64,000 bases of DNA from Vicinamibacteria bacterium (GTDB lineage Bacteria > Acidobacteriota > Vicinamibacteria > Marinacidobacterales > Marinacidobacteraceae). Location: assembly GCA_965215615.1 (NCBI GenBank), contig OZ244068.1, forward strand, positions 2,558,504-2,622,503, read 5' to 3'. The notes under the pieces are model-generated. The model made no database searches. It worked only from the letters and a program-made list of their open reading frames with translations, and was not told the DNA's origin. Positions 46,820 to 60,450 of this stretch are shown here, piece by piece. Numbering within the stretch: position 1 is the first letter of the stretch; each line of letters starts with the position of its first letter. A program made the position numbers and the translations under genes.

Positions 46820-46874
46820 CAGCCTTCGCCATTCTCATTCTATTTTCCTCAATCCTCAAACAAGGAACGATCCG

Positions 46875-48731
46875 ATGACCCACTCCGCTCCTCCTCTGAA
46901 GCCCATTGACGGCGAACCGCGCAGTATTCGTGCGCTCTTGAGTGAAGCCAAATATTCCGTTGACTACTACCAGCGTGAATACAGATGGGAAACCAAGCAC
47001 ATTGACGAACTACTCGCCGATCTAGTCAACAAATTTAGGGAGAGCCACATCGCGGGTAACCCACGAGGTTCGCACAAAAATTATGACCACTACTTTCTTG
47101 GGTCTATCATCGTATGCGGAATAAATCAGAAGAAATTTCTTGTTGATGGTCAACAAAGAATCACGACCCTAACGCTTCTTCTCATTTTTCTGAGGCATGC
47201 ACTCGAAGAAGCCGAAGATAAGGGAGAACTCGATCCGCTAATCCGGTCCAGAGTCGCCGGTGTGCGTTCATTCAATCTGAATGTTGACGAACGGACACCT
47301 TGCATGGAAGCTCTTTTTGACCAAACTCCACACCCAGATCCGCCACCTTCGGATTCAGTGGAGAATATTTTGGCTCGATATCAGGATCTGACCGAGTTGT
47401 TCCCTGACAACTTACTCCATGAATCTCTTCCTCTGTTCGTAGACTGGCTCCTCGATAACGTACACATGATCGAAATCGTGACGTACTCGGATGCCGATGC
47501 ATATACCATTTTCGAAACCATGAACGACCGTGGCCTATCATTGACACCCTCCGAAATGCTGAAGGGCTATCTCTTAAAGAGTATCGACATCGAAAAAAGA
47601 ATAGAAGCCAATAACGCATGGCGATCTCGCTTTCGACGACTTGGAGAACTCGGGAAAGGAGAAGGAGCGGAGGCGGTCAAAGCACTGTTGCGGAGCCAAT
47701 ATGCGTTGACGATTCGGGAGCGGAAGAGCAACGCAGAGCCTCGAGACTTTGACCTCATCGGTACAGAATTTCATCGATGGGTCCGGCGCCAGAAGGATCA
47801 CATCGGCCTACGAGTCAACGATGATTTTTTTCTTTTCATCACACGAGAATTCGAATACTACGGAAGCTGGTACGAAAGACTCCGACGTGCTGGAGATACC
47901 CTCACTGAGGGCTTGGAGTGTGTGCATTTCAACGCTCAGCATAGATTTACCCTTCAGTATCCGCTTCTTCTTTCACCGATCAGACTGAGTGACGATGAAT
48001 GCGATGCGCTTCGTAAAGTTCGCATCGTAGCATCTTTCCTTGATATCTTTATCTGTAGGAGAATATGGAATTGGAGATCAATCGATTATTCGACCATGCA
48101 GTATGCGATGTTCTCTGTCATGAAGAAGATTCGTGCGAAATCTATCGAGGAACTACTTCTGGTTCTTGGTCAAAGATTAGATGAGGAAAAAGAAACATTC
48201 GCGAAGAGTGATTGGAACGCTAGTTTTGGACTTCATGGAACTAATGGCCCGCGAATCCACCGCCTCTTGGCAAGAATGACAGATTATGTCGAAACCGCCT
48301 CCGGTCAGCAATCACGCTATGCCGAATACGCACGACGTGGGCATGGTGGCTACGAAATCGAACACATTTGGGCCGATCATGCGGATCTCCACAAGAACGA
48401 GTTTCGACACTCTAGCGAATTTGCCGAATATCGAAACCGAATTGGAGGCTTGCTTCTTCTTCCCAAGAGTTTCAATGCAAGCTACGGAGATCTTCCATAC
48501 GATAAGAAACGGGATCACTACTTAAAGCACAATCTGCTCGCACAGAGTCTCCATGAGAAGGCATACGAACGAGATCCAGGTTTCCTGAAATTCATCGAGC
48601 GGACCGGATTGGAATTTCGACATCACAAGAATTTTGGGCGAGAAGACCTTGATGCCCGGCAAGAGCTGTACCGGCAGTTGGCAGCCAAGGTTTGGGATCC
48701 GAATCGGCTCAAGGAGGAAATGGACGACTGA
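46875..48731 (+). CDS. GmrSD-like type IV restriction enzyme family protein (N-terminal DUF262/ParB-like NTPase domain with DGQQR motif + C-terminal DUF1524 His-Me finger nuclease)
   Basis: …LVDGQQRITTL… (DUF262) and …YEIEHIWADHADLH… (DUF1524 H-N-H-like). The gene and 55 bp upstream are about 48-50% GC against a ~70% background. Confidence 0.8.
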   Translation: MTHSAPPLKPIDGEPRSIRALLSEAKYSVDYYQREYRWETKHIDELLADLVNKFRESHIAGNPRGSHKNYDHYFLGSIIVCGINQKKFLVDGQQRITTLTLLLIFLRHALEEAEDKGELDPLIRSRVAGVRSFNLNVDERTPCMEALFDQTPHPDPPPSDSVENILARYQDLTELFPDNLLHESLPLFVDWLLDNVHMIEIVTYSDADAYTIFETMNDRGLSLTPSEMLKGYLLKSIDIEKRIEANNAWRSRFRRLGELGKGEGAEAVKALLRSQYALTIRERKSNAEPRDFDLIGTEFHRWVRRQKDHIGLRVNDDFFLFITREFEYYGSWYERLRRAGDTLTEGLECVHFNAQHRFTLQYPLLLSPIRLSDDECDALRKVRIVASFLDIFICRRIWNWRSIDYSTMQYAMFSVMKKIRAKSIEELLLVLGQRLDEEKETFAKSDWNASFGLHGTNGPRIHRLLARMTDYVETASGQQSRYAEYARRGHGGYEIEHIWADHADLHKNEFRHSSEFAEYRNRIGGLLLLPKSFNASYGDLPYDKKRDHYLKHNLLAQSLHEKAYERDPGFLKFIERTGLEFRHHKNFGREDLDARQELYRQLAAKVWDPNRLKEEMDD

Positions 48732-48736
48732 CTTCT

Positions 48737-50707
48737 TTGTTCTCCTCTACTCGGTGGCCACTTTTGGGCTGGCTCACGGTCCTCCTCGGCATCGCAGGAC
48801 CCGCCGTCGCCCAGGACCGCGCCCCCGGTGAGTGGCCGCACTACGCCGCCGATCTCGCGTCCACCCGCTATTCGCCGCTGGACCAGATCCACGCCGGCAA
48901 CGTCCATGAGCTCGGGATCGTCTGGCGGTGGAACTCGCGCAACTACGGGCCGCGGGTGGATTCGAACCTCCGCACCACGCCGATCATGCTGGACGGGGTG
49001 CTCTATGTGACCGCAGGTTCCCGGCGGGCGGCCATCGCGATCGATGCGGCCACCGGGGAGACGCTCTGGAGCTTCCGGCTGGATGAGGGCAAGCGCGGCG
49101 AATCGGCACCCCGCGCCACTTCGGGCCGGGGGCTCGCCTTCTGGAGCGACGGAGAAGCGGCCAGGGCTTTTCTGGTGACTCCCGCCTACCAGCTCGCCGC
49201 CCTCGATGCCGCCACCGGGAAGCCGATCCCGGGCTTCGGGCTCGACGGCATGGTGGATCTCCGGCGTGATCTCGGGCGCGAGGTGGACCTCGAGACGGCG
49301 CGGATCGGAGCCGGTTCGCCACCCACGGTCGTCGGGGACGTGATCGTGGTGGGCGCGGCGCTCGTGAGTGGCAGCGCTCCGCCCTCGCCGGAGAATGCGC
49401 CGGCTCCGGTCCGGGGCTACGACGCCCGCAGCGGCGAGCTCCTCTGGACCTTCCACACGATCCCCCGCGAGGGTGAATTCGGGAACGACACCTGGGAGAA
49501 CGACAGTTGGCGCTTCACCGGGAACACCGGGGTCTGGGCGTGGATGAGCGCCGACCCCGAACTCGGCCTCGTCTATCTGCCCACAGAAGCGCCCACCGGG
49601 GACTACTACGGGGGGCACCGGCCCGGCGACAACCTGTTCAGCCAGAGCATCGTCGCGCTCGACGTGCGCACCGGCGAGCGGAAGTGGCACTACCAGACGG
49701 TCCACCACCCGATCTGGGACTACGACCTCCCGACCGCGCCGGTGCTGCTGGACCTGACGGTGGACGGCGAGGAGATTCCGGCGCTGGCGCAGGTCACGAA
49801 GCAGGGGTTCACCTTCGTCTTCGACCGCCGGACCGGCGAACCGGTCTGGCCGATCGAGGAACGCCCGGTCCCGGCGAGCGAGGTTCCGGGTGAACGGACT
49901 GCCCCGACCCAGCCGTTCCCGACCCGGCCGCCGCCGTTCCATCGTCAGGGAGTCAGCGAGGACGACCTGCTGGACTTCACGCCCGAACTCCGCGAGGAGG
50001 CGCTCGCCATCTCCAGGTTCTACACGCTCGGGCCGCTCTTCACCCCGCCGACGCTGATGGTGGAGCGCGGCAACCGGGGCACGATCACGGTGCCCGGCGC
50101 GCTCGGCGGAGCGAACTGGCCGAGCGTGGCCGCCGACCCGGAGACCGGCATCCTCTATGTCTCCACCGGGCTCGACGTGAACATCCTCGGCCTCGAACAC
50201 GACCCGGACCGCTCCACCATGGATTACGTCCAGGGCTCGCGCCGGGCGATCCGCCTTCCGCGCGGCGGCGGCCCCCAGGGACTGCCGCTGCTGAAGCCGC
50301 CGTGGGGCCAGATCACCGCGCTCGACCTGAACCGGGGCGAGATCCTCTGGCAGATCGAAAACAGCGACACTCCGGAGTGGGTGCGGGAGCACCCCGCGCT
50401 CGAAGGCATCGAACTCGGGCGCACCGGCCAACCCGACCGCGGCGGCCTGCTGGTGACGAAAACACTCCTCTTCGCCGGCGAAGGCAGCGGCATGTTCGCC
50501 GCCTATGGCTCCGGCGGCCCCATGTTCCGCGCCCACGACAAGGCCACCGGCGAGATCCTCTGGGAGTTCGAGCTGCCCGCGAACCAGTCCGGAACCCCGA
50601 TGAGTTACCTGGTGGACGGCCGCCAGTTCGTCGTCGTCGCGGTGGGCGCTCCCGGCCGTCCGGGCGAGTTCGTCGCCCTCGCGCTGCCCGAACAGACTCC
50701 GGAATAG
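48737..50707 (+). CDS. PQQ-dependent (quinoprotein) alcohol/glucose dehydrogenase family, signal peptide
   Basis: Proposed TTG start giving MFSSTRWPLLGWLTVLLGIAGPAVAQ. Eight-bladed propeller W-motif repeats (…YSPLDQI…, …WSF…, …YDLPTAPVLLD…). Confidence 0.75.
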   Translation: MFSSTRWPLLGWLTVLLGIAGPAVAQDRAPGEWPHYAADLASTRYSPLDQIHAGNVHELGIVWRWNSRNYGPRVDSNLRTTPIMLDGVLYVTAGSRRAAIAIDAATGETLWSFRLDEGKRGESAPRATSGRGLAFWSDGEAARAFLVTPAYQLAALDAATGKPIPGFGLDGMVDLRRDLGREVDLETARIGAGSPPTVVGDVIVVGAALVSGSAPPSPENAPAPVRGYDARSGELLWTFHTIPREGEFGNDTWENDSWRFTGNTGVWAWMSADPELGLVYLPTEAPTGDYYGGHRPGDNLFSQSIVALDVRTGERKWHYQTVHHPIWDYDLPTAPVLLDLTVDGEEIPALAQVTKQGFTFVFDRRTGEPVWPIEERPVPASEVPGERTAPTQPFPTRPPPFHRQGVSEDDLLDFTPELREEALAISRFYTLGPLFTPPTLMVERGNRGTITVPGALGGANWPSVAADPETGILYVSTGLDVNILGLEHDPDRSTMDYVQGSRRAIRLPRGGGPQGLPLLKPPWGQITALDLNRGEILWQIENSDTPEWVREHPALEGIELGRTGQPDRGGLLVTKTLLFAGEGSGMFAAYGSGGPMFRAHDKATGEILWEFELPANQSGTPMSYLVDGRQFVVVAVGAPGRPGEFVALALPEQTPE

Positions 50708-50717
50708 GCTTCGCCCC

Positions 50718-51116
50718 ATGAAACAGTTCCTGATCCAACAGCGCGAATCGGCGTACGCGCTGCTCCGCATCGTCGCCGGCTTCGGATTCGTTTGCCACGG
50801 AGTCGTGGCCGTCAGCTTCCTGCTGGGCGAGGGAACTCCGTACTCCCCGGCGTGGCTCTACAACTCCGCCGGGATCATCGAGCTCGTGACCGGCCTGCTG
50901 GTCATGGTGGGGTGCCTGACGCGACCGGCCGCCTTCCTCGCGTCCGGAACCATGGCGGTGGCCTATTTCTACGCGCACCAGCCGGACGGCCTGCTCCCGA
51001 TCCAGAACGGCGGCGAACTGGCGATGGTGTATTCCTTCGTGTTCCTGCTGCTCGCCACCGGCGGCTCCGGCAAGTGGAGCCTCGAGGCCTGCTGCGCTCC
51101 GAGGAAAAAAAGCTAA
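50718..51116 (+). CDS. DoxX-family membrane protein (paralogue of 39299..39706)
   Basis: …YALLRIVAGFGFVCHG…; four TM helices. Confidence 0.7.
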   Translation: MKQFLIQQRESAYALLRIVAGFGFVCHGVVAVSFLLGEGTPYSPAWLYNSAGIIELVTGLLVMVGCLTRPAAFLASGTMAVAYFYAHQPDGLLPIQNGGELAMVYSFVFLLLATGGSGKWSLEACCAPRKKS

Positions 51117-51193
51117 CCGAACCAGAAACGAAAGCCGTGGCGACAGACCACATTTGGGCATCGAAGTGACATCGCATACGCTATCATTTCGGC

Positions 51194-51628
51194 ATGAGAG
51201 TCGTCGTGGACACGAACGTCATCGTTGCCGCGTTGGGAAGCCCTGACGGTGCCAGTCGCGAAGTTCTCCGACGCTGCCTTCATGGTTCCTATGCCCCGCT
51301 CATCGGAGAGACTCTCTTCTGGGAGTACGAATCCGTACTCCGACGGGAGGAGCCCTTCGCCAAATCCAGAGCCTCGCCAGCGGAGCGCAACGCCCTCTGG
51401 GCAGCCTTGGCGAGCCGCTGCGAGTGGATTCGAGTGCGCTACCTCTGGCGTCCGAACCTGCCCGACGAAGGAGACGACCACATCATGGAATTGGCGCTGG
51501 CGGGTGGGGCCCAAGCGATCATCACCTACAACACAGCCGACTTTCGGGGCGGCGATCTGCTGTTTCCACAGGTACGGATCGTGACTCCCACCACGCTGAT
51601 CACGGAGAACTCAACATGGCGACCTTGA
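51194..51628 (+). CDS. PIN-domain toxin (PIN_3 / TIGR00305-like, toxin-first orientation)
   Basis: MRVVVDTNVIVAAL… and …DDHIMELALAGGAQAIITYNTADF… carry PIN acidic residues. Confidence 0.65.
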   Translation: MRVVVDTNVIVAALGSPDGASREVLRRCLHGSYAPLIGETLFWEYESVLRREEPFAKSRASPAERNALWAALASRCEWIRVRYLWRPNLPDEGDDHIMELALAGGAQAIITYNTADFRGGDLLFPQVRIVTPTTLITENSTWRP

Positions 51629-51873
51629 CCGTCCGAATCCCCGACGACACCCACGCGCGCGTCAAGAATCTGGCGCGCCACCGCGGCATGAGCGTGAACC
51701 GCCTGATGGAGGAACTGAGCGTGATTGCCGTTACCCAGCACGATGCCGAGATGCGCTTCAGGGCCTTGGCCGTGCGCGGGTCCAAAGAGGAAGGGCTCGC
51801 GATTCTCGAGAAGCTCGACCGTGCCTTCACCGCCGGGCGTTCCGGAAACCCGCAGATGGAATCCCGAACATGA
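51616..51873 (+). CDS. Ribbon-helix-helix (CopG/ParD-like) antitoxin
   Basis: MATLTVRIPDDTHARVKNLARHRGMSVNRLMEEL is a canonical RHH beta-strand plus two helices. Overlaps the PIN gene by 13 nt and the downstream HD gene by 4 nt (ATGA). Confidence 0.6.
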   Translation: MATLTVRIPDDTHARVKNLARHRGMSVNRLMEELSVIAVTQHDAEMRFRALAVRGSKEEGLAILEKLDRAFTAGRSGNPQMESRT

Positions 51874-52439
51874 CCCGCGACGAGGCCTGGGCGCACCTGA
51901 CCGCCTGGTGCGAGACCGATTCGCTCCGGAAGCACGCCCGCTCGGTAGAGATCGTGATGCGCGCCGCCGCCTCGCGCTACGGCGGCCCCGACGACGACCC
52001 GGAGGTCTGGGGAATCGCCGGGATGCTCCACGATGCCGACTACGAGAAGTGGCCGGAGGACCATCCGAACCGCATCGTCGCCTGGCTGCGCGAGCGCGGC
52101 GAAGAGGAACTCGCCTACGCGATCTCGGGGCACTACACCAAGTGGAACGTCCCGCTGAAGTCGCAAATGGACAAGGCGCTCCTCGCCTGCGACGAACTCA
52201 CCGGGTTCATCGTGGCCTGCTGCCTCGTGCGACCCGAGGGCGTTTCGACGCTCGGAGCGCGCAGCGTGAAGAAGAAGCTCAAGGACAAGGCGTTCGCCGC
52301 CAAGGTGGAGCGCCACGAGTGCCGGTTCGGTGCCGAACTGCTGGGAGTGGAGATCGGCGAGCACATCGACTTCATCATCGGCGCGCTCCGCCCCCACGCA
52401 GAGGAACTCGGGATCACCGGCCGGGTGCTGGCCCCCTGA
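51870..52439 (+). CDS. HD-domain metal-dependent phosphohydrolase (small, ~190 aa)
   Basis: H…HD…H…D pattern (…RKHARSVE…GMLHDADYEKW…ISGHYTKW…LLACDELTG…). Confidence 0.6.
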   Translation: MTRDEAWAHLTAWCETDSLRKHARSVEIVMRAAASRYGGPDDDPEVWGIAGMLHDADYEKWPEDHPNRIVAWLRERGEEELAYAISGHYTKWNVPLKSQMDKALLACDELTGFIVACCLVRPEGVSTLGARSVKKKLKDKAFAAKVERHECRFGAELLGVEIGEHIDFIIGALRPHAEELGITGRVLAP

Positions 52440-53620
52440 TGCTGACGGAGGCCGAACTCGGGGCCCTGTTGGCCGAAGAGTCGGATCGCGTGGAGATGAC
52501 GACCTCCACGAAGAACACCGACAAGTTCGGAGAAGCTGTCTGCGCGTTCGCGAACGACTTCCCGAACCACCGGCAACCCGGATACCTGCTGGTCGGCGTG
52601 GACGACAACGGAAGAGCCACCGGACTCGCAATCACCGATCAGCTTCTCCGTTCCCTGTCCGACCTGCGCTCCAACGTGAATCTGGAGCCCATCCCCGCCA
52701 TCACGGTCCGCAAGGCTTCGCTGCCGGAAGGCGACGTGGCCGTCGTGGAAGTCACGCCCTCCGATCTTCCTCCGGTCCGCTACAAGGGGCGTATCTGGAT
52801 TCGGATCGGCCCCTCCCGCCGGCAGGCGAATCGGCAGGAAGAGCGGACCCTGGTCGAAAAGCGCACCGGCTGGCAAAAGCCTTTCGATTTGCTGCCTCGG
52901 CCCGAAGCAACGCTCGACGACCTGGTGACGGATCTGTTCCGGGTCACCTACCTGCCTCGTGCCGTGACCCGCGACGTACTCCTCGAGAACGACCGGGATT
53001 TGACCGAGCAACTGGCTTCTCTTCGCTTCTACGACATCGAGACCCGTTCGCCGACCCATGCCGGCTTGCTGCTTTTTGCCAAGGACCCCTTGCTCTGGCT
53101 ACCGGGTGCCTATCTGCACATGGTGCGCTGGACCGGTGACACCATGGCGAGTGAGCCGGATTGGGAGCGACGTTTTCGCGGGGACCTGCTGTCCTTGTTG
53201 CGCGATCTGGACAACTTCGTTTCCCTCCCGACTCGTCCGCGGCCCGTCGCGGCCACAACACTGGGCGAGCACGATCTGACCGACTATCCGCACACGGCAA
53301 TCCGGGAACTCCTGCTCAACGCGATCATGCATCGCACTTACGAATCGAACGCCCCGGTGCGATTCAACTGGTTCCGGGATCACATCGAAATCCAGAGCCC
53401 GGGCGGGCTTTACGGCATGGCATCTCGGGAGAATTTTCCGCGACAGACCGACTACCGCAATCCGGTACTGGCGGAAGCGATGGCCAACCTCGGATACGTC
53501 AACCGTTTCGGGCGCGGAGTCATACGAGCGCAGCAGGCGCTGACAGAGAACGGGAATCCTCCGGCCGAGTTCGCTTTCGATCCCGGACACGTTCTCGTGA
53601 CGCTGCGCAAGACATCATGA
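52439..53620 (+). CDS. AlbA_2 (Schlafen-like putative DNA-binding) + HATPase_c_4 two-domain ATP-binding protein
   Basis: N-terminal …EESDRVEMTTSTKNTDKFGEAVCAFANDFPNHRQPGYLLVGVDDNGRATG… (AlbA_2). C-terminal …AIRELLLNAIMHRTYESNAPVRFNWFRDHIEIQSPGGLYGM…RNPVLAEAMANLGYVNRFGRGV… (HATPase_c_4). Start overlaps the HD stop by 1 nt. Confidence 0.65.
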   Translation: MLTEAELGALLAEESDRVEMTTSTKNTDKFGEAVCAFANDFPNHRQPGYLLVGVDDNGRATGLAITDQLLRSLSDLRSNVNLEPIPAITVRKASLPEGDVAVVEVTPSDLPPVRYKGRIWIRIGPSRRQANRQEERTLVEKRTGWQKPFDLLPRPEATLDDLVTDLFRVTYLPRAVTRDVLLENDRDLTEQLASLRFYDIETRSPTHAGLLLFAKDPLLWLPGAYLHMVRWTGDTMASEPDWERRFRGDLLSLLRDLDNFVSLPTRPRPVAATTLGEHDLTDYPHTAIRELLLNAIMHRTYESNAPVRFNWFRDHIEIQSPGGLYGMASRENFPRQTDYRNPVLAEAMANLGYVNRFGRGVIRAQQALTENGNPPAEFAFDPGHVLVTLRKTS

Positions 53621-54597
53621 AGACCGTCGCGTTCTTCAACAACAAGGGCGGTGTCGGCAAGACTTCCCTCGTCCACCATCTGTCCCACATGTACGCGGAG
53701 CTCGGGGCCAGCGTGATCGCCGCCGATCTGGATCCCCAGGCGAACCTGACATCCATGTCTCTCCCGGAAAATCGTCTGGAAGAGATATGGCCCGAAGGCG
53801 AGCATCGGGACAGCATCCTGGGGGTGATTTCTCCCATTCTGAAAGGGATGGGCGATATTGGCGAAGCAACCATCCAGGAGCTCTCGCCTCGACTGGGACT
53901 GATCGCCGGCGACCTGGGGCTCTCCCGTTTCGAATCACGGCTCTCGTCCGCGTGGCCCGAATGCATGAGTGGAGAGGAAGCGGCGTTCCGCGTGGAATCA
54001 GCGTTCTACCGGATGATCCAGGATGCGGCGCTCCGGCGGCAGGCGGACATGGTGCTCATGGACATCGGCCCGAATCTCGGGGCGGTCAACCGGGCCGCCA
54101 TCCTCGCGGCGGACTACGTCGTCTTTCCGCTGGCACCCGATCTGTTTTCGCTACAGGGGCTCGAAAACCTTGGCCCCACCCTGGCTTCCTGGCGACTCGA
54201 GTGGAAGGACCGCCTTGAGCGTGCGCCGAATGGATTGAGGCTTCCGCGTGGCGAGATCGCTCCCGCAGGTTACGTCGTGATGCAGCACGCGATCCGGCTT
54301 GGCCGACCGGTCCAGGCTTACGAAAAGTGGATGCATCGCATCCCAGGCGTGTACCAGAAGGAGATACTCGGGACATCTTCTTCCGAGCAGGCCTCGGAGA
54401 CCGACGCCCATCGGCTCTCTACCCTGAAGCACTACCGAAGCCTCATGCCGATGGCACAAGACGCGCGCAAACCGATGTTCCATCTCACTCCCGCCGATGG
54501 CGCCCTCGGCGCACATACCTATGCGGTGCAGGACTGCTACGACGACTTCGAGCGACTCGCCGGGGCCATCGCAGCGCAATGCGGCATCTCCTGGTGA
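53617..54597 (+). CDS. ParA/MinD-family P-loop ATPase with ~100-aa C-terminal extension
   Basis: Deviant Walker A MKTVAFFNNKGGVGKTS, a Walker A' Asp region (…ADLDPQANLT…) and Walker B (…MVLMDIGP…). Start overlaps the upstream stop (ATGA). Confidence 0.7.
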   Translation: MKTVAFFNNKGGVGKTSLVHHLSHMYAELGASVIAADLDPQANLTSMSLPENRLEEIWPEGEHRDSILGVISPILKGMGDIGEATIQELSPRLGLIAGDLGLSRFESRLSSAWPECMSGEEAAFRVESAFYRMIQDAALRRQADMVLMDIGPNLGAVNRAAILAADYVVFPLAPDLFSLQGLENLGPTLASWRLEWKDRLERAPNGLRLPRGEIAPAGYVVMQHAIRLGRPVQAYEKWMHRIPGVYQKEILGTSSSEQASETDAHRLSTLKHYRSLMPMAQDARKPMFHLTPADGALGAHTYAVQDCYDDFERLAGAIAAQCGISW

Positions 54598-54667
54598 AGC
54601 AGATCCAGTTTTTCCTCCTGGAACCGGCGCAGCTTGAAGAGCCGCCGCACGAGTTTCCAGGGTCTCT

Positions 54668-54844
54668 TTACTGTTCGATCCCTCTTTCCCACGTCTGGTG
54701 CCAGGATGTCAACTCGGCGAAGATGAAGAAAAGGACAGCGTTTTGCGGCTCGCCATCCATGAGACAACCGATCGCCACCAGCGTCCACAGGAGTGGGAGG
54801 AGGACCACGCCGCGGTTCAGCAACTGCCACAATTTCTTGAACAT
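54668..54844 (-). CDS. Small (58 aa) hydrophobic protein, low GC
   Basis: MFKKLWQLLNRGVVLLPLLWTLVAIGCLMDGEPQNAVLFFIFAELTSWHQTWERGIEQ has one clear TM helix and an AAAGGAA RBS 7 nt upstream. The ~350-bp patch is ~50% GC. It is convergent with the ParA-like gene. Confidence 0.3.
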   Translation of the reverse strand: MFKKLWQLLNRGVVLLPLLWTLVAIGCLMDGEPQNAVLFFIFAELTSWHQTWERGIEQ

Positions 54845-55012
54845 CAGAATTCCTTTCATGGATTGCATACCACGCATGAAGCGTGACATATGAGGACACC
54901 CTTCCATTTGTCTCTCTCGGACCTGCTCGCAACCTGACCCGTGGATCACTCCGAGACGAGCGCCCGGCCCAGCGACCCTTGCGTACTACATTTTTACTAC
55001 AATGAAGGCGAT

Positions 55013-55312
55013 ATGGCGATCAACCTCACCCACCGGCCGGACCTCGAAGAGCGCATCGAGCGATTGGCCTCCCGGTTCGGAATGAACGGACGAGGCCGCA
55101 AGACCGCGATCATCGAAAGAGCCCTTTCCGCGCTCGAAGAGGAGATGCCGCGCATGTCTCCAGAGGAGATCGTGGAGTCGCTCGAAGCCTTTGGCCGCGA
55201 TGCGGCACGGGTGACCGAAGAGTTGGCCGGAGATCCGGATCTCGATCACGCGAAACCGCTCTCCCAAACCCTCCAGGATGCGCTCTACGACGAGCAGGGC
55301 TTGCCGAAGTGA
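55013..55312 (+). CDS. vapB: VapB-type antitoxin (RHH / Rv0623-like family)
   Basis: MAINLTHRPDLEERIERLASRFGMNGRGRKTAIIERALSAL… Overlaps the downstream vapC (GTGA). Confidence 0.55.
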   Translation: MAINLTHRPDLEERIERLASRFGMNGRGRKTAIIERALSALEEEMPRMSPEEIVESLEAFGRDAARVTEELAGDPDLDHAKPLSQTLQDALYDEQGLPK

Positions 55313-55725
55313 TCGTCGTGGACACATCGGCGATCCTCGCGATCCTCCAGCGAGAGCCCGAAGCTCCTCGCTTTCGACGCGCCATTGCGGAAGCCGGAGT
55401 GGCGCTGGTCTCCGCGGGCACTGCCGTGGAGCTCGCCGCAATGGTCACCGCCAGACCCGGGAGCCTTCGCGAAGAAGCCAAGGACTTTCTGCGTCTGCCG
55501 TTCGTGCGGATCGAGCCGGTCACGGCGGCACAAGCCGATCGAGCTGCCGATGGCTTTTCGAGCTGGGGCAAGGGACACCACCCGGCAGGCCTGAACTTCG
55601 GGGACATGTTCGCCTACCTTCTCGCGCGCGACCGAGGGCTCCCCCTCCTCTTCAAGGGCAACGATTTCGTCCATACGGAGGTGGAGAGCGCGCTCGCAGG
55701 CGAAGGAAGCGGGCGGGGCGACTGA
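55309..55725 (+). CDS. vapC: VapC-family PIN-domain toxin
   Basis: MIVVDTSAILAIL… and …NFGDMFAYLLAR… carry PIN catalytic acidic residues. Confidence 0.75.
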   Translation: MIVVDTSAILAILQREPEAPRFRRAIAEAGVALVSAGTAVELAAMVTARPGSLREEAKDFLRLPFVRIEPVTAAQADRAADGFSSWGKGHHPAGLNFGDMFAYLLARDRGLPLLFKGNDFVHTEVESALAGEGSGRGD

Positions 55726-55999
55726 CCGGACCGGCGCGATCAGACAGCCAGCGGGTCTTGGGTCGTTTCGCGGTCCTTCAGTGTGGCCCGCAGCCGGTCC
55801 ACCACGATCCCGTGCCTCGATTCTGTGTCCCCGGTTGGCAATTCGAGAACCGTATCCACGGATGTCTCCGCCATGAGCATCAAAGTAGTAGCTGGTGTAC
55901 ATCGAATCCTTCCCGCTCCGTCAACGGTGTTGCGGAGAGTAGGGAACCGGTGCGTCAGAGCGCGTCATCCCCTCGTGACGCGCTGCCGGAGCAGGCGGG

Positions 56000-57595
56000 T
56001 CAGGCGAGGGCCGGGGACGCGAGCTTTTCGAGGTTTGCCTCGAACATCCCCTGGAGTTGCCGGGCCTTCCTGTCGTAGGCCTCCGGGTCTTCCCACGTCC
56101 CGCGCGGATCGAGAACCTCGGCGGGGACTCCGGGACAGGCGCGGGGAACTCCCAGCCCGAAGACCGGGTCCGGGGCGTATCCGGAATCATCCACGCTGCC
56201 ATCGAGGGCGGCGCTCACAAGCGCCCGGGTGAGCCCGAGCGGCATCCGGTCGGCGACGCCGGCGGGGCCGCCGCTCCATCCCGTGTTGACGAGGTAGCAG
56301 CGGACGTCGTTCTCGCGGATGCGTTTTCCGAGCAGCTCGGCATAGACCTCCGGGCGGCGGGTCATGAACGGCGCGCCGAAACAGGGGCTGAAGGTCGCCT
56401 GCGGCTCTTCGATGCCGCGCTCGGTTCCGGCCACCTTCGCGGTGTAGCCGGACAGGAAGTGATGCATCGCCTGCTCCGGAGTCAGCCGGGAGATCGGCGG
56501 CAGCACCCCGAAAGCGTCGGCGGTGAGCATCAGCACCACCCGGGGGTGGCCTCCGGTGCCCGTTCGAGAGGCGCTCGGGATGTGGGTGACCGGGTAGGAA
56601 GCGCGGGTGTTCTCGGTGAACTCGGCGCTGTCCAGATCCAGCCGGCGGGTCTCGCCCCGGACCACCACGTTCTCGAGGATCGTCCCGAAGCGGCGGGTGG
56701 TGGCGTAGATCTCCGGCTCGCCGGTACGCGAGAGCCGGATGACCTTGGCATAGCAGCCACCCTCGAAGTTGAAGACTCCCTCCGGTCCCCAGCCGTGCTC
56801 GTCGTCCCCGACCAGGGTACGGTGCGGGTCGGCCGAGAGCGTCGTCTTGCCGGTTCCCGAGAGCCCGAAGAAGATCGCCAGATCATCGGGATCTTCGCCG
56901 TGGTTCGCGGCGCAGTGCATCGGCAGCACGTCGCGCTCCGGCATCAGCCAGTTCATCACCGAGAACACCGATTTCTTGATCTCGCCGGCGTAAGCGGTTC
57001 CCCCGATGAGGATCTCCCGCCGCTCGAAGTTGACCACCACGAAGACCTCGGAGCGGGTGCCGTCCTGGTCGGGAGCGGCCCGGAACTGGGGTGCCGCGAT
57101 CACCGTGAACTCCGGATGGTGCTCTTCGAGGGCCTCCGATTTCCGGGTCCGCACGAACATGTTGCGCGCGAAGAGGTTCTGCCAGGCGGTGGTGGTGATC
57201 ACCCGGATCGGGAGCTGGTAGTCCGGATGGGCCCCGACGTGGCAGTCCTGGACGAAGAGCTCCCGGTTCTGGAGGTAGGCCGTGAGCCGCCAGCGGAGCC
57301 GCTCATACCGCTCGCGGGAGAACGGCCGGTTGTGTGTTCCCCACCACACTTCGGGGTCGGTCTCCGGGCCGCCCACCACGTACTTGTCCTGGGGCGAGCG
57401 GCCGGTGAACTCCCCGGTGCGGACCACGATAGGGCCGCCGTGGGCGAGGATCGCCTCCCCGCGGAAGACCGCCTCCTGGGTCAGCGCCGGGGTGGAGAGA
57501 TTCCAGTGAACCCGGCGGGGATAGCGAATTCCGGCGAGCGAGAGCCCATGGCGACTGGGCGCAAATCCGAGGTGTTCGGTTTCGAGGTGGTGCAA
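56000..57595 (-). CDS. pckA: Phosphoenolpyruvate carboxykinase (ATP)
   Basis: 531 aa, collinear with E. coli PckA (…TGRSPQDKY…, kinase-1a GLSGTGKTTLS, …GDDEHGW…, …FEGGCYAK…). Confidence 0.9.
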   Translation of the reverse strand: MHHLETEHLGFAPSRHGLSLAGIRYPRRVHWNLSTPALTQEAVFRGEAILAHGGPIVVRTGEFTGRSPQDKYVVGGPETDPEVWWGTHNRPFSRERYERLRWRLTAYLQNRELFVQDCHVGAHPDYQLPIRVITTTAWQNLFARNMFVRTRKSEALEEHHPEFTVIAAPQFRAAPDQDGTRSEVFVVVNFERREILIGGTAYAGEIKKSVFSVMNWLMPERDVLPMHCAANHGEDPDDLAIFFGLSGTGKTTLSADPHRTLVGDDEHGWGPEGVFNFEGGCYAKVIRLSRTGEPEIYATTRRFGTILENVVVRGETRRLDLDSAEFTENTRASYPVTHIPSASRTGTGGHPRVVLMLTADAFGVLPPISRLTPEQAMHHFLSGYTAKVAGTERGIEEPQATFSPCFGAPFMTRRPEVYAELLGKRIRENDVRCYLVNTGWSGGPAGVADRMPLGLTRALVSAALDGSVDDSGYAPDPVFGLGVPRACPGVPAEVLDPRGTWEDPEAYDRKARQLQGMFEANLEKLASPALA

Positions 57596-60450
57596 GTGCG
57601 ATCTCCGGTTCCGGCCGGAGAATCGCCCGGCCGCTCAAGCCCGGCATCGTAGCCCGCGAAGCCGGGCCGCTTCTTCGATTCGCGCCCTGCGGTCTGGGTC
57701 GCCAGCTCCCCAGCGAGCCGGTCCCGATCCTCGAGGAAGCCGAGCACTTCGGCCCGCTCCCGAACGAGGGCGAAATCGGCGGGGGTCAGTCGCCCGGAAT
57801 CGAGAATCACGGGCGGAGCCTCACCCCCGAAGAACACCTCCCAGGCCCGCGCCACCCGAGGGCGGTCCAGATAATCGAAGGTCGCGTGGAACAGGAACCG
57901 GCGCGCCACCGCCGGATCGAGATGGTCTCGCAGGTTGGTGGTGAACACGTACGGCAGATCGTGGACCTCCAGTTGGCTCAACAGTTCGTTCGCCTGGCTC
58001 GTTTCCCACGAACGAACATGATCCCGCCGATCCCCAAGCAGCGAATCGGCCTCGTCGAGAATCAGGAACGCACGCCGCTCCCGGGCTTCGGCGAACATCC
58101 TGGCGATGTTCTGCTCGTTCTCGCCCACCCACTTGCTGAGAAGGTCGGAGGCACGCCGGACCATGGGATCCATCCCCATCCGCTTCGCCAGTTGCTTCGC
58201 GAACTCGGATTTCCCGGTTCCCGAGGGGCCGTCCAGCAGGATGCCCATCCGGCGGGGGCCGAGAGCCACGACCCGGTCCGCGAGATCGGCCAGATCCCGA
58301 TCGGCGCTCACCAGCGAGAAGTCGTAGTTCTCGACCGGTTTCGCTTCCGCCACCCGCGACCCGCGGCGAAGGCGGGATTTCTGCTCGACCGAGCGCCGGA
58401 GTGCGTCTTCTCCTCCGCCGGTGAAGGCCGCGACCCGGGCCGCGTTTCCGACCTGCCGGGGGGTGATCCGCGGGTTCGCCGCCAGTTCGCGGACGAATTC
58501 CGGGGACGGAACCCCGCTCTTCTCGGTGAGAATCCCCCGGAACATCTCCTCGCGGGTGGCGGCGGACAGGTTCCGGAATTCGAGAGACAGGGTGAACCGG
58601 TCCAGCAACTGGGGAAACACCATGCGGAGAACCTCGATCTCGTTGGCGGTGAACAGGATCGGCACCGGAGCCTGCTCCAGCAGATCGTTCAGCCACTGCT
58701 TGGATTCATCGAGAATCTCTTCGAGTTCGTCGAAGAGAAGGAAGGCACCCGGTTCGTCGGCAAGTGCCTCGCAGGCGAAACGAAGACTCACCGGCCGAGC
58801 AACGGTGAGACGGGCATCGGTGCCCTGCTCGCGCTTTCCCACCGAGTAGAGAGTCGCTCCCGCCTCGGCGGCCAGCGAGTGGCAGAACTCGGTCTTGCCG
58901 CAACCGGGCGGCCCATAGGCGAGAAAGCTCACCCCCCGCACCGCGGCGGCATCTCCCCGGCGGCGCGCATCCAGCGCGTTCCGGAACACCCCGAGAACGT
59001 CCTTACCCGGGTCGCCCAGGTGCCCGAAGGCCTTCCACGGAAGTTGCGCCCGAACCGGGGGGCCGAGACGGGGCCGGGCGATCTGGCAGGACACGGTGCG
59101 CTCGTGGCGCTCGGCGAACCGGCGGATGTCCTCCGCCGAACCCCCGATCAGACGGGAGGACCGGATCGCCGGTTCGATGAGACCCGGAGGACACTCGAGA
59201 TCGTCGGCGAGAAAGCCGGCGAGACTCTCGGCGGACGATTCGTCGAGCGAATCGAGACCGCTCTTCCGCACCATGCTGAGCGCGACGCTCCGCCGTCGGG
59301 ACGGGCTGTGCGCCTTGAAGCGGATGGTCAGATCGAACCGCCGCAACAGCGCTTCGTCGAAGTCCTCGAGACTGTTCACCGTGAAGATCGCCGGGACCGA
59401 GAGTTCCTCGAGAAGCTGGAGACTGTGGCGACGGCGGCCCTCGCTGGTCTGGAGAAGATCCTCGGCCTCGTCGCAGAGAATCACCGCCTCCGGATCGCTC
59501 CGGAGCAGGACATCGGCAGCGCGAAGGCGATTGCGGTACGCGGCCGGGCTATCGGAGTCCCGCGAGGTGGACTCTTCCCGCCGCTCGCGGGGGTCATCTC
59601 CGCCGCTGATGTCATGGGCGCGCCCCGAGGCTGCCTTGGCAAGTGCCTTCGAGAACTGGGTCTTTCCGGTTCCCGCCCGCCCGTAGAGCAGGATGCGGGC
59701 GCTCTCGCGCTTCTCGACGGCAGCCGACAGCAGGCGGAAGGCGTCCTCCCGTTCGCCGAGATGGTCGAAGTCCTCCAGCTCGAGAAGCGGCTCGGAAGCG
59801 AGAGGCGCGATACGGGTTCCCAGCTCGTCCTCATCGCGGACCGGCGGCTCATAGATCCGATCCAGCCAGTCGTCGGTGTAGTTGCGCGGCTCGGCGCCCT
59901 CCGCTCCCCATGCCGAAGCGTCGGCAAGACCGAGAGCCGAGAGGCGGCGAAGCCCCTTCTCCACAGCGGTCCGGGAGATCCCGAGAACGGTCGCGGTGGC
60001 ATCCAGCCCGTTGCCGTGGGACTCCTGGACGGCATCCCAAAACGTCTCGACCGGACCGCGACGGCGATAGATGCGGGCCAGTTCCAGCAGGGCGTGGCAC
60101 GACTCATCGAGACGAAACCGGCGCGCCACCACTCCGGTGGCTTCGGCTTCGCGGCTCGCCGGAGGTGCCGGCCGGAGTGAGGCCTCGACCTCCTCCCGCA
60201 TGGTCTTCAGAAACGCCCGGGCGCGCCCCCTGGGGAAGCCGTCCCGCTCGCGGCGCGGGCCGAACTTCTTCTCGAAGCGCTTCTCCCAGCTTCCGGCCCC
60301 GATATCCTTGGTCTCGTCAAAGTTGCTATTGATCCAGTCGAGAAGCGCGGCCGCGAGGGGCCCGTCGTTCCGGGCCGCCACCAGCGCGTTCCGGAAATAC
60401 CGGCGGGAGAGGTAGTGGTCGTAGGCGTTTCTTCCGTGTTTCTGTTTCAT
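57481..60450 (-). CDS. Large ATPase with three tandem classic AAA+ modules and an N-terminal sigma-70-region-4-like HTH
   Basis: Three Walker A motifs (GRAGTGKTQ; GPPGCGKTE; GPSGTGKSE), each followed by Walker B hhhhDE (ILCDEAE; LLFDELE; LILDEAD) and LLRRF / LLDRF / VARRF second-region-of-homology motifs. The N-terminus has …LDATATVLGISRTAVEKGLRRLSALGL…. The 3' end overlaps the pckA start by 115 nt. Confidence 0.7.
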   Translation of the reverse strand: MKQKHGRNAYDHYLSRRYFRNALVAARNDGPLAAALLDWINSNFDETKDIGAGSWEKRFEKKFGPRRERDGFPRGRARAFLKTMREEVEASLRPAPPASREAEATGVVARRFRLDESCHALLELARIYRRRGPVETFWDAVQESHGNGLDATATVLGISRTAVEKGLRRLSALGLADASAWGAEGAEPRNYTDDWLDRIYEPPVRDEDELGTRIAPLASEPLLELEDFDHLGEREDAFRLLSAAVEKRESARILLYGRAGTGKTQFSKALAKAASGRAHDISGGDDPRERREESTSRDSDSPAAYRNRLRAADVLLRSDPEAVILCDEAEDLLQTSEGRRRHSLQLLEELSVPAIFTVNSLEDFDEALLRRFDLTIRFKAHSPSRRRSVALSMVRKSGLDSLDESSAESLAGFLADDLECPPGLIEPAIRSSRLIGGSAEDIRRFAERHERTVSCQIARPRLGPPVRAQLPWKAFGHLGDPGKDVLGVFRNALDARRRGDAAAVRGVSFLAYGPPGCGKTEFCHSLAAEAGATLYSVGKREQGTDARLTVARPVSLRFACEALADEPGAFLLFDELEEILDESKQWLNDLLEQAPVPILFTANEIEVLRMVFPQLLDRFTLSLEFRNLSAATREEMFRGILTEKSGVPSPEFVRELAANPRITPRQVGNAARVAAFTGGGEDALRRSVEQKSRLRRGSRVAEAKPVENYDFSLVSADRDLADLADRVVALGPRRMGILLDGPSGTGKSEFAKQLAKRMGMDPMVRRASDLLSKWVGENEQNIARMFAEARERRAFLILDEADSLLGDRRDHVRSWETSQANELLSQLEVHDLPYVFTTNLRDHLDPAVARRFLFHATFDYLDRPRVARAWEVFFGGEAPPVILDSGRLTPADFALVRERAEVLGFLEDRDRLAGELATQTAGRESKKRPGFAGYDAGLERPGDSPAGTGDRTCTTSKPNTSDLRPVAMGSRSPEFAIPAGFTGISPPRR

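Follow-up and report, generated by a model that had tools for sequence, protein, structure and literature searches.

The 64,000-nucleotide stretch of DNA analysed here (the window; contig OZ244068.1 of assembly GCA_965215615.1, from a Vicinamibacteria bacterium) contains five consecutive plus-strand genes, which the initial annotation presented as a candidate for a single translationally coupled defence or abortive-infection module. In our analysis the cluster breaks up into three pieces, a resident HD hydrolase gene, a PIN+RHH cassette and a two-gene cassette, brought together by repeated insertion at one spot. The two-gene cassette, which encodes a Schlafen (SLFN) protein of the class called Schlatpases and a ParA-like ATPase, is an obligate, coupled, horizontally mobile unit and the sole conserved unit of the cluster. 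The genes, and the accessory segment to which the pair belongs, are as follows.

51194..51628, plus strand: PIN_3-family toxin gene, 144 aa (Pfam PIN_3, 1.7e-21)
51616..51873, plus strand: RHH gene, presumed antitoxin of PIN, 85 aa (Pfam RHH_1/HicB/FitA-like, ~3e-4)
51870..52439, plus strand: HD-superfamily hydrolase gene, 189 aa (Pfam HD, 1.5e-4)
52439..53620, plus strand: Schlatpase gene (SLFN_AlbA_2 + HATPase_c_4; Pfam), gene 1 of the pair, 393 aa
53617..54597, plus strand: ParA-like AAA_31 ATPase gene, gene 2 of the pair, 326 aa (Pfam AAA_31, 1.4e-26)
52424..55995, no strand assigned: accessory segment with the pair, a small minus-strand open reading frame and VapB/VapC (55013-55725), delimited by blastn synteny

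All five genes were found where the initial annotation had placed them, with overlaps at all four junctions as it had described. The PIN and RHH genes overlap by 13 nt, from the RHH start codon (ATG, 51616) to the PIN stop codon (TGA, 51626-51628). An ATGA is common to RHH and HD (51870-51873), as is another to the last two genes (53617-53620), and a single A is common to the HD stop codon (TGA, 52437-52439) and the start codon of the AlbA_2 gene (ATG, 52439-52441). No promoter-like site and no plus-strand terminator-like site was detected inside the cluster, and within it there was neither an Rfam match nor a repeat array. Pfam searches bore out the domain calls of all five genes, although those for HD and RHH are barely over threshold. 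The HD match scored 22.4 bits against a cut-off of 22, and the RHH protein exceeded the cut-offs of RHH_1 and HicB while falling under that of FitA-like_RHH (20.4 vs 27 bits). The PIN protein also scored over the cut-off of the NCBIfam family TIGR00305 (putative toxin-antitoxin toxin, PIN family). The five proteins matched no named system in PADLOC-DB v2.0.0, in which PIN, RHH and HD were without any match, and the initial annotation had likewise not recognised the arrangement as a named system.

To see which parts of the cluster are conserved, we scanned one genome per GTDB species with the ParA-like protein, which gave at least 536 relatives, and analysed the best 80 loci by tblastn with the five window proteins. 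In 78 of the 80, the gene immediately upstream of the ParA-like gene encodes a Schlafen protein (40-68% identity). The two exceptions are a locus at a contig edge, where there is no room for it, and a Symploca locus (L081) with a different upstream protein. The HD gene, by comparison, is near the pair in a single locus (L021) and PIN/RHH in none, and the proposed triplet of HD, AlbA_2/HATPase_c_4 and ParA is thus not conserved as a unit. The association also held in the reverse direction: a metagenome scan with an alignment of the Schlafen protein returned 18 loci, and in all 15 with downstream sequence the ParA-like gene follows directly. The 4-nt stop/start overlap (ATGA or GTGA) is exact in 81 of 86 loci, and the pairwise identities of the two proteins are correlated (r=0.65, Mantel p=0.001).

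The pair is widely spread. The 80 loci come from Acidobacteriota, Planctomycetota, Verrucomicrobiota, Nitrospirota, Nitrospinota, several classes of Proteobacteria, Myxococcota, Chloroflexota, Cyanobacteriota, Bacteroidota, Bacillota, Actinomycetota, candidate phyla and two Methanosarcinales archaea, and from Acidobacteriota to Methanosarcinales the ParA-like protein retains 54-66% identity to that of the window (tblastn). A protein search with the ParA-like sequence gave thousands of matches, the best 120 of which are approximately 330 aa long and 64-100% identical over their full length; in a library of 1.84 billion representatives, the matches at E<=1e-30 fell into 518 clusters at 50% identity. 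One metagenomic representative, P0374 (731 aa), joins SLFN_AlbA_2, HATPase_c_4 and the ParA-like ATPase in a single chain, in the order of the genes and with a linker of approximately 13 residues. A second apparent fusion, P0485 (690 aa), was discarded as probably a frameshifted pseudogene, since its middle part is arginine-rich and looks out of frame.

The history of the cluster was examined by blastn comparison of the window with three syntenic relatives, L092, L093 and L021, the last from a metagenome-assembled genome of Vicinamibacteraceae. The window genome, L092 and L093 have a common backbone of Pyr_redox/AIRS, beta-lactamase, GSDH, PQQ, DoxX and HD genes. The HD gene occupies the same syntenic position in all three relatives, and in L092 and L093 it is coupled to DoxX by an ATGA overlap. 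Three segments of the window do not follow this pattern. The PIN toxin and RHH genes lie on one inserted segment (51105-51868) without counterpart in any of the relatives, and the segment with the GmrSD gene (46820-48801) is likewise absent from all three. Nothing in L093 matches 52424-55995, and there HD is followed by a methyltransferase gene and then by PEPCK, so that L093 lacks both the AlbA/ParA pair and VapBC while keeping HD. The guanine-cytosine (GC) content of 52424-55995 is 0.60-0.65 vs 0.68-0.70 in its flanks. The segments missing from the relatives indicate that HD was resident and that no fewer than three separate insertion events produced the cluster.

The two other relatives show the pair in different states. 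In L092 (6590-7292) an internal deletion has left a decayed copy: of gene 1 the 5' ~336 nt remain, with an annotation as an AlbA_2 protein of 163 aa, and of gene 2 the 3' ~138 nt. In L021 the pair follows HD, and the HD 3' end is copied again just past the ParA-like gene: L021:9112-9250 repeats the terminal ~138 nt of HD, at 83% identity to window 52286-52423. With a complete HD gene on one side of the pair and a fragment of the HD 3' end on the other, the pair probably reached this locus through recombination inside HD. In both L092 and L021, the junction of HD and the Schlafen gene is a gap of 20-30 nt with no overlap.

The HD gene is a resident core gene of housekeeping type, belonging to a DoxX-HD operon and lying outside the conserved module. 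Across Acidobacteriota, Planctomycetota and Deltaproteobacteria its homologues show 73-97% identity; they also occur in unrelated contexts that have nothing to do with defence (L094-L096), and are annotated only as predicted hydrolases of the HD superfamily. PIN+RHH is probably an ordinary toxin-antitoxin cassette, and it was inserted independently. In VapBC-like type II toxin-antitoxin pairs the antitoxin gene usually comes first; the toxin-first order of PIN/RHH is atypical, whereas its 13-nt overlap and its PIN_3 and RHH domains fit such a pair. A comparison of window 51105-51868 with L093:5976-6000 shows that this cassette replaced the DoxX/HD ATGA junction exactly: the RHH stop codon now makes the same ATGA overlap with the HD start codon, and the DoxX 3' end is different and shorter. 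The segment with the gene for the 618-aa GmrSD type IV restriction protein has a GC content of 0.48-0.53, vs ~0.68 around it, and is inserted precisely between the GSDH and PQQ genes. Its low GC content, its absence from the three relatives and the precision of its insertion identify this segment as a separate recent acquisition.

These observations bear directly on the initial proposal that the five genes make up one integrated defence system. In such a system PIN/RHH could be the trigger or a backup, HD could act on nucleic acids or nucleotides as a nuclease or hydrolase, and the AlbA-ATPase and the ParA protein would be its sensor and motor. The overlaps at all four junctions and the lack of internal promoter or terminator signals make co-transcription plausible. 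The AlbA/ParA overlap, however, is the only one kept elsewhere, and that between HD and AlbA is lost even in L021 and L092. PIN/RHH accompanies none of the 80 loci and is missing from the three relatives, and HD, present at one of the 80, is coupled to DoxX in two of the relatives and is far more conserved than the pair, usually in non-defence contexts. We therefore regard an integrated five-gene system as extremely improbable. The five genes may be co-transcribed, yet they are not a functional system. The cluster illustrates that a chain of stop/start overlaps is not enough to mark genes as a functional unit: in this case the chain links a housekeeping gene with two cassettes that were acquired separately. 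What survives of the proposed defence module is its last two genes, which are conserved, coupled and horizontally spread.

Gene 1 is, judged from its domains and motifs, a standalone Schlatpase, i.e. an SLFN nuclease domain and a GHKL ATPase domain in one supradomain. The name was coined for this SLFN + GHKL combination, which is carried by 58.6% of 103,533 prokaryotic SLFN proteins, and most Schlatpases are small, with no further domain or only a helix-turn-helix (HTH) (bioRxiv 10.64898/2026.05.29.728809). In gene 1 the SLFN/AlbA_2 domain (PF04326, 2e-17, residues 14-131) and the GHKL-type HATPase_c_4 domain (PF13749, 6.3e-16, residues 305-389) both score above the gathering threshold and are separated by a linker, and Pfam found neither an HTH nor a sensor domain. 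PADLOC matched only the SLFN/GHKL portions of its SLFN-pAgo (SLFN-prokaryotic Argonaute) and Aga models, the former over residues 13-326. The GHKL part resembles PDB 3LMM, an AlbA-GHKL-like structure, which we take to be DIP2311 from the same genome region as DIP2308, a structural homologue of gene 2 described below.

Residue conservation was scored over 76 diverse homologues. In the nuclease domain E14, E19, N39 and D40 are kept in at least 75 of the 76, as are N294, H298, R299, G322, G326, G352, G358 and G360 in the GHKL domain. E14 and E19 each occur in 75, and N294 and the five glycines are invariant. The spacing of E290-x3-N294 is that of E314/N318 in the SLFN-pAgo RzAgo, an assignment made by motif spacing; E314 and N318 coordinate the gamma-phosphate and Mg (bioRxiv 10.64898/2026.05.29.728809). 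The lysine position of the catalytic Schlafen motif Ex4(E/D)xK (PMC13056530) is split almost evenly, with threonine (T21) in 39 homologues, including that of the window, and lysine in 37. This split defines two co-varying subfamilies among loci L001-L089, T21/E290/N355 (n=39, window included) and K21/Q290/Q355 (n=37), and no mixed types were seen. The window subfamily thus lacks the motif lysine and keeps the GHKL glutamate, and the sister subfamily does the reverse. The positions concerned are as follows.

52499-52501: co-varying Schlatpase residue 21
53306-53308: co-varying Schlatpase residue 290
53501-53503: co-varying Schlatpase residue 355

Gene 2 encodes an ATPase with the deviant Walker A motif of ParA and Soj (KGGVGKT, residues 10-16), which besides AAA_31 also matches the Pfam families CbiA and MipZ. 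K10, T16, D37, D39, Q41, N43 and D149 are invariant in the 76 homologues and K15 is kept in 74; D37/D39 correspond to Walker A' and D149 to Walker B. The long C-terminal extension pointed out in the initial annotation is real and conserved; it spans ~130 aa that canonical ParA does not have and includes a conserved block, S275-H300. The nearest full-length solved homologue is PDB 3PG5 (DIP2308), by sequence (E=7.6e-29) and as the top Foldseek match, followed in Foldseek by Soj, ParA and McdA. The AlphaFold2 model used for this comparison is mediocre (predicted local distance difference test score, pLDDT, 62; predicted template modelling score, pTM, 0.71) and served only to confirm 3PG5 and Soj as the nearest folds. 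In PADLOC, gene 2 matched ~40 residues of the PDC-M28B Walker A region and, weakly, mad8.

Relatives of the ParA-like protein also occur without a Schlafen partner. Distant full-length relatives (25-40% identity; hhalign probability 99.6%, 313 columns) are found in prophages, with no Schlafen gene accompanying them. In Salmonella phage ST160 (L090:3515-5068), and also in the P22-like SE1, a relative of ~26% identity lies directly after the c2 repressor gene, accompanied in ST160 by a DUF3024 gene, and in the prophage of E. coli EC11 (L097:4001-5077) one of ~26% identity follows an XRE repressor. Temperate phages typically carry extra genes expressed in the lysogen in the slot after a CI-type repressor. 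Such a ParA-like gene is carried by ~2% of complete E. coli genomes (109/5426), and other relatives adjoin integrases. Of the IMG/VR viral contigs scanned, only two carried the pair itself. P0471 (545 aa), a full-length relative, carries a RES toxin domain at its C terminus (Pfam, 2.1e-13), and its Walker A motif is degenerate (HGAVGTT). The Symploca locus (L081; 4625-6580, 7944-9014) has no Schlafen gene despite having room for one; a 651-aa protein encoded 1.4 kb upstream of the ParA-like gene contains a caspase domain (Peptidase_C14), a region weakly like GHKL and pentapeptide repeats. Directly after the pair in another locus (L031:4883-8502) come an 818-aa AAA_21/AAA_15/SMC-type ATPase and a second, divergent Schlatpase (24% identical), which is a second kind of ATPase+Schlatpase pairing.

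The resemblance of gene 2 to ParA raises the alternative that the pair positions or regulates DNA, with the AlbA_2/GHKL protein acting as a ParB-like adaptor or transcription factor, or that it is left over from a plasmid partition system. Such a role would fit the ParA fold with its intact ATPase motifs, and annotations often label AlbA_2/HATPase_c_4 proteins as regulators or as DNA-binding. However, gene 2 scores far under the NCBIfam cut-offs for partition ATPases (ParA_partition, 60.7 bits vs 180; RepA, 55 vs 348; SopA also far below), and a search of 72,556 plasmids gave no close relative, the best being 35% identical. As the initial annotation had remarked, the pair has no ParB-like neighbour and no centromere-like repeat arrays. 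Its gene order is opposite to that of par operons. The nuclease-type glutamates of gene 1 are conserved, the HTH of regulator-type Schlatpases is missing from it, and the fusion of a RES toxin domain to a ParA-like relative also points away from positioning. Taken together, the NCBIfam scores, the plasmid search and the lack of repeat arrays led us to reject an origin of the pair as a partition remnant, and we consider a positioning or regulatory function very unlikely.

The genomic surroundings of the pair were then compared. The GmrSD and VapBC neighbours named in the initial annotation are real, and as a hotspot for accessory insertion the region has taken up GmrSD, PIN/RHH, the pair and VapBC. 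The window pair is flanked by GmrSD and two toxin-antitoxin pairs. When the open reading frames around 83 loci were clustered, no more than three neighbour families recurred, the HmaA SNF2 helicase, the HmaB DUF1156 methylase and the HmaC DUF499 ATPase, and in ~10 loci the pair has HmaA/HmaB/HmaC or PLD-helicase neighbours. L033, L034, L063 and L074 have it on the same strand as HmaA and HmaB and between the two, and in L045, L050 and L061 it is placed between a methylase and a helicase. One locus adjoins AAA_21+RloB and an integrase, another adjoins insertion sequence elements, RadC and a methylase, and other copies are near AbiLi, PbeA or NOV_C/TmtA genes. The pair (2.2 kb) shows the pattern of a small mobile accessory cassette, with an apparent preference for defence loci in uncorrected neighbour data, and Hma-type loci carry it as cargo and not as a component. 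A mobile element with terminal repeats was also considered and rejected, because the flanks in the window hold only direct and inverted repeat matches of chance length.

Schlafen-minimal-kinase genes have been recorded in BREX and BREX-related (DUF499) loci of at least 1017 taxa and read as backup suicidal effectors, with no mention of a ParA partner (PMC12839542). That interpretation could be extended to the pair, which would then be a backup effector of restriction-like systems (Hma, BREX-related or type I restriction-modification) that fires when the primary system is inhibited and has no activity of its own. The copies situated inside Hma-type operons, between helicase and methylase, agree with this. 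Within 8 kb of most copies, though, there is no Hma or BREX gene, and this includes the window copy, around which HmaA, HmaB and HmaC are all missing. It follows that the pair can persist without such genes and can probably also act independently, and we think it unlikely that it is only a backup.

We also weighed a toxin-antitoxin-like addiction module, in which the ParA-like protein would neutralise a toxic Schlatpase and stabilise the islands that carry the pair, with no sensing of phage. A small two-gene cassette with tight translational coupling, a patchy distribution at variable positions and toxin-antitoxin pairs next door would all be expected of such a module. Decayed copies have lost parts of both genes (L092), or the nuclease only with ParA kept (L024, L027), which also fits. 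On the other hand, the pair is repeatedly embedded in restriction-like defence operons, a ParA-type ATPase would be unusually elaborate as an antitoxin, and the single-chain fusion P0374 is unexpected if the mechanism depends on a labile antitoxin. Pure addiction is, in our judgement, a doubtful explanation. It should be noted that the addiction and defence readings are not mutually exclusive, as many defence systems behave as toxin-antitoxin pairs.

The explanation that we favour, by a modest margin over even chances, is that the five-gene cluster is a mosaic of three unrelated pieces and that the pair is a two-gene anti-phage abortive-infection module with the ParA-like protein as its sensor or regulator. 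Prokaryotic Schlafens defend against phage via tRNA cleavage (PMC13056530), and in SLFN-pAgo the Schlatpase drives ATP-dependent tRNA cleavage (bioRxiv 10.64898/2026.05.29.728809). By analogy, the binding of ATP to the GHKL domain of gene 1 would drive oligomerisation and assemble the Schlafen nuclease site, which may then cut tRNA or other RNA and stop translation. Gene 1 having no sensor domain, sensing and control would be supplied by the ParA-like ATPase, which translational coupling would keep at a fixed ratio to the Schlatpase. An ATP-dependent dimer of the ParA-like protein might hold the nuclease inactive, or license it, and switch state on meeting a sign of phage, for instance a phage protein or foreign DNA. 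The mosaic origin, the obligate pairing and coupling, the conserved catalytic-type residues, the fusion and the defence-type neighbourhoods were observed. The nuclease activity and its substrate, the complex of the two proteins, the trigger and the phage phenotype are all predicted here from sequence.

Several points weigh against this proposal. In the window subfamily threonine replaces the canonical motif lysine, so that nuclease activity cannot be taken for granted. The AlphaFold2 model of gene 1 (pLDDT 47, pTM 0.28) is too poor for fold comparison. The correlated divergence of the two proteins can be explained by joint inheritance alone, and most immediate neighbours of the pair are housekeeping genes (gyrA, recA, tRNA synthetases, catalase) in raw counts that are not background-corrected. 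Furthermore, neither of the two Slfn-HisKinase fusions tried in E. coli belonged to the two constructs that conferred defence (PMC13056530).

A broader and more tentative possibility, which we hold as less probable than the two-gene module itself, is that ParA-like ATPases with the C-terminal extension are a large unrecognised family of immune sensors or switches, to which the 518 clusters would belong, controlling swappable toxic effectors. The effectors would be a Schlatpase in trans or fused (P0374), a RES domain (P0471) or the caspase/GHKL-like protein of Symploca, and the ParA-like protein would also act alone as a gene of prophage immunity regions (ST160/SE1, E. coli prophages and possibly GiPD474, discussed below). 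If so, the commonest class of Schlafens, which has no sensor, would have been inactive in single-gene tests because its sensor is the ParA-like partner. A sensor or switch function would also give ParA-family ATPases a role beyond the positioning of DNA and protein cargo.

Some further features of the window lie outside the pair. Minus-strand small open reading frames (93-103 aa) are present between the ParA-like gene and VapB (54537-54949), one of them with two hydrophobic stretches. The 103-aa frame (54537-54848) matched no Pfam family and had no counterpart beside other copies of the pair. Just past PEPCK, the minus strand at 57481-60450 encodes a 989-aa protein with three AAA+ modules (Pfam AAA, three stretches). 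The ENA record ERZ25072448 (L001) is identical to the window except within the Schlafen protein (52439-53617), where the identity is 99.5% (~2 residues), and further along this record (from 20479 onward) there is a gene with a Mu-type transposase C-terminal domain.

Finally, we compared the pair with known systems. Gene 2 shares with the ParABS and Soj-Spo0J ATPases the signature lysine of the deviant Walker A as well as the Walker A' and Walker B motifs. In contrast to them, the pair has no ParB, parS-like repeats or close plasmid relatives, and gene 2 has an extra C-terminal module of ~130 aa. The only solved structure that matches gene 2 nearly end to end, most of the extension included, is 3PG5 from Corynebacterium diphtheriae, which is, however, only ~22-30% identical and is a structural-genomics entry with no function or partner recorded. 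In overall design the pair is like PARIS (AriA/AriB) and AbiL/RloB, which combine an ATPase with a nuclease effector (a tRNA nuclease in PARIS) and are carried as cargo in BREX and restriction-modification loci. The likeness ends there, since the folds are unrelated (ABC/AAA_21 + Toprim vs ParA/SIMIBI + Schlafen+GHKL), and in PADLOC the pair matches neither system.

GiPD474, encoded in the immunity region of the Gifsy-1 prophage, was found by experiment to give broad phage resistance (PMC12724215). This ParA/MinD-like AAA_31 ATPase is ~360 aa long and has an additional, uncharacterised domain. It occupies a slot like that of the distant relatives of the window protein in ST160/SE1 and E. coli prophages. 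Unlike gene 2, it stands alone, having no Schlafen gene as partner, and the likeness between the two is one of description. The solo ParA-family gene found after an XRE repressor in E. coli was considered as a possible GiPD474, but the accession and the position of Walker A differ and the link is unproven.

The closest parallels to gene 1 are other Schlafen systems. SLFN-pAgo (RzAgo of Runella zeae) has PF04326 followed by PF13749 in the same order as gene 1, and both have the GHKL E-x3-N. SLFN-pAgo, however, contains an Argonaute core serving as guide-dependent sensor, which the pair lacks and in place of which we propose the separate ParA-like protein as sensor or regulator. No conserved partner has been reported for SLFN-pAgos and ParA is not mentioned (bioRxiv 10.64898/2026.05.29.728809). 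The single-gene Schlafens RorSlfn5 and EcoSlfn7 likewise have a Schlafen nuclease domain with conserved glutamates and are associated with defence islands; in the same survey, 'Slfn + HisKinase' is the commonest architecture (34%) (PMC13056530). In these two proteins the sensor, an Ig-like or DUF262 domain, is fused in cis, whereas the window subfamily has threonine for the motif lysine and always has the ParA-like gene alongside. Prokaryotic Schlafen defence, the Schlatpase supradomain and its embedding in BREX-like loci were already known, the first two from work of 2026, and the ParA-like partner appears to be new: in the literature searched and in PADLOC v2, the obligate partner, the coupling, the fusion and the two co-varying subfamilies are not described. 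The validated Schlafen defence proteins carry their sensor in the same chain, and the ParA-like partner is a candidate sensor or switch for the commonest, sensor-less class.

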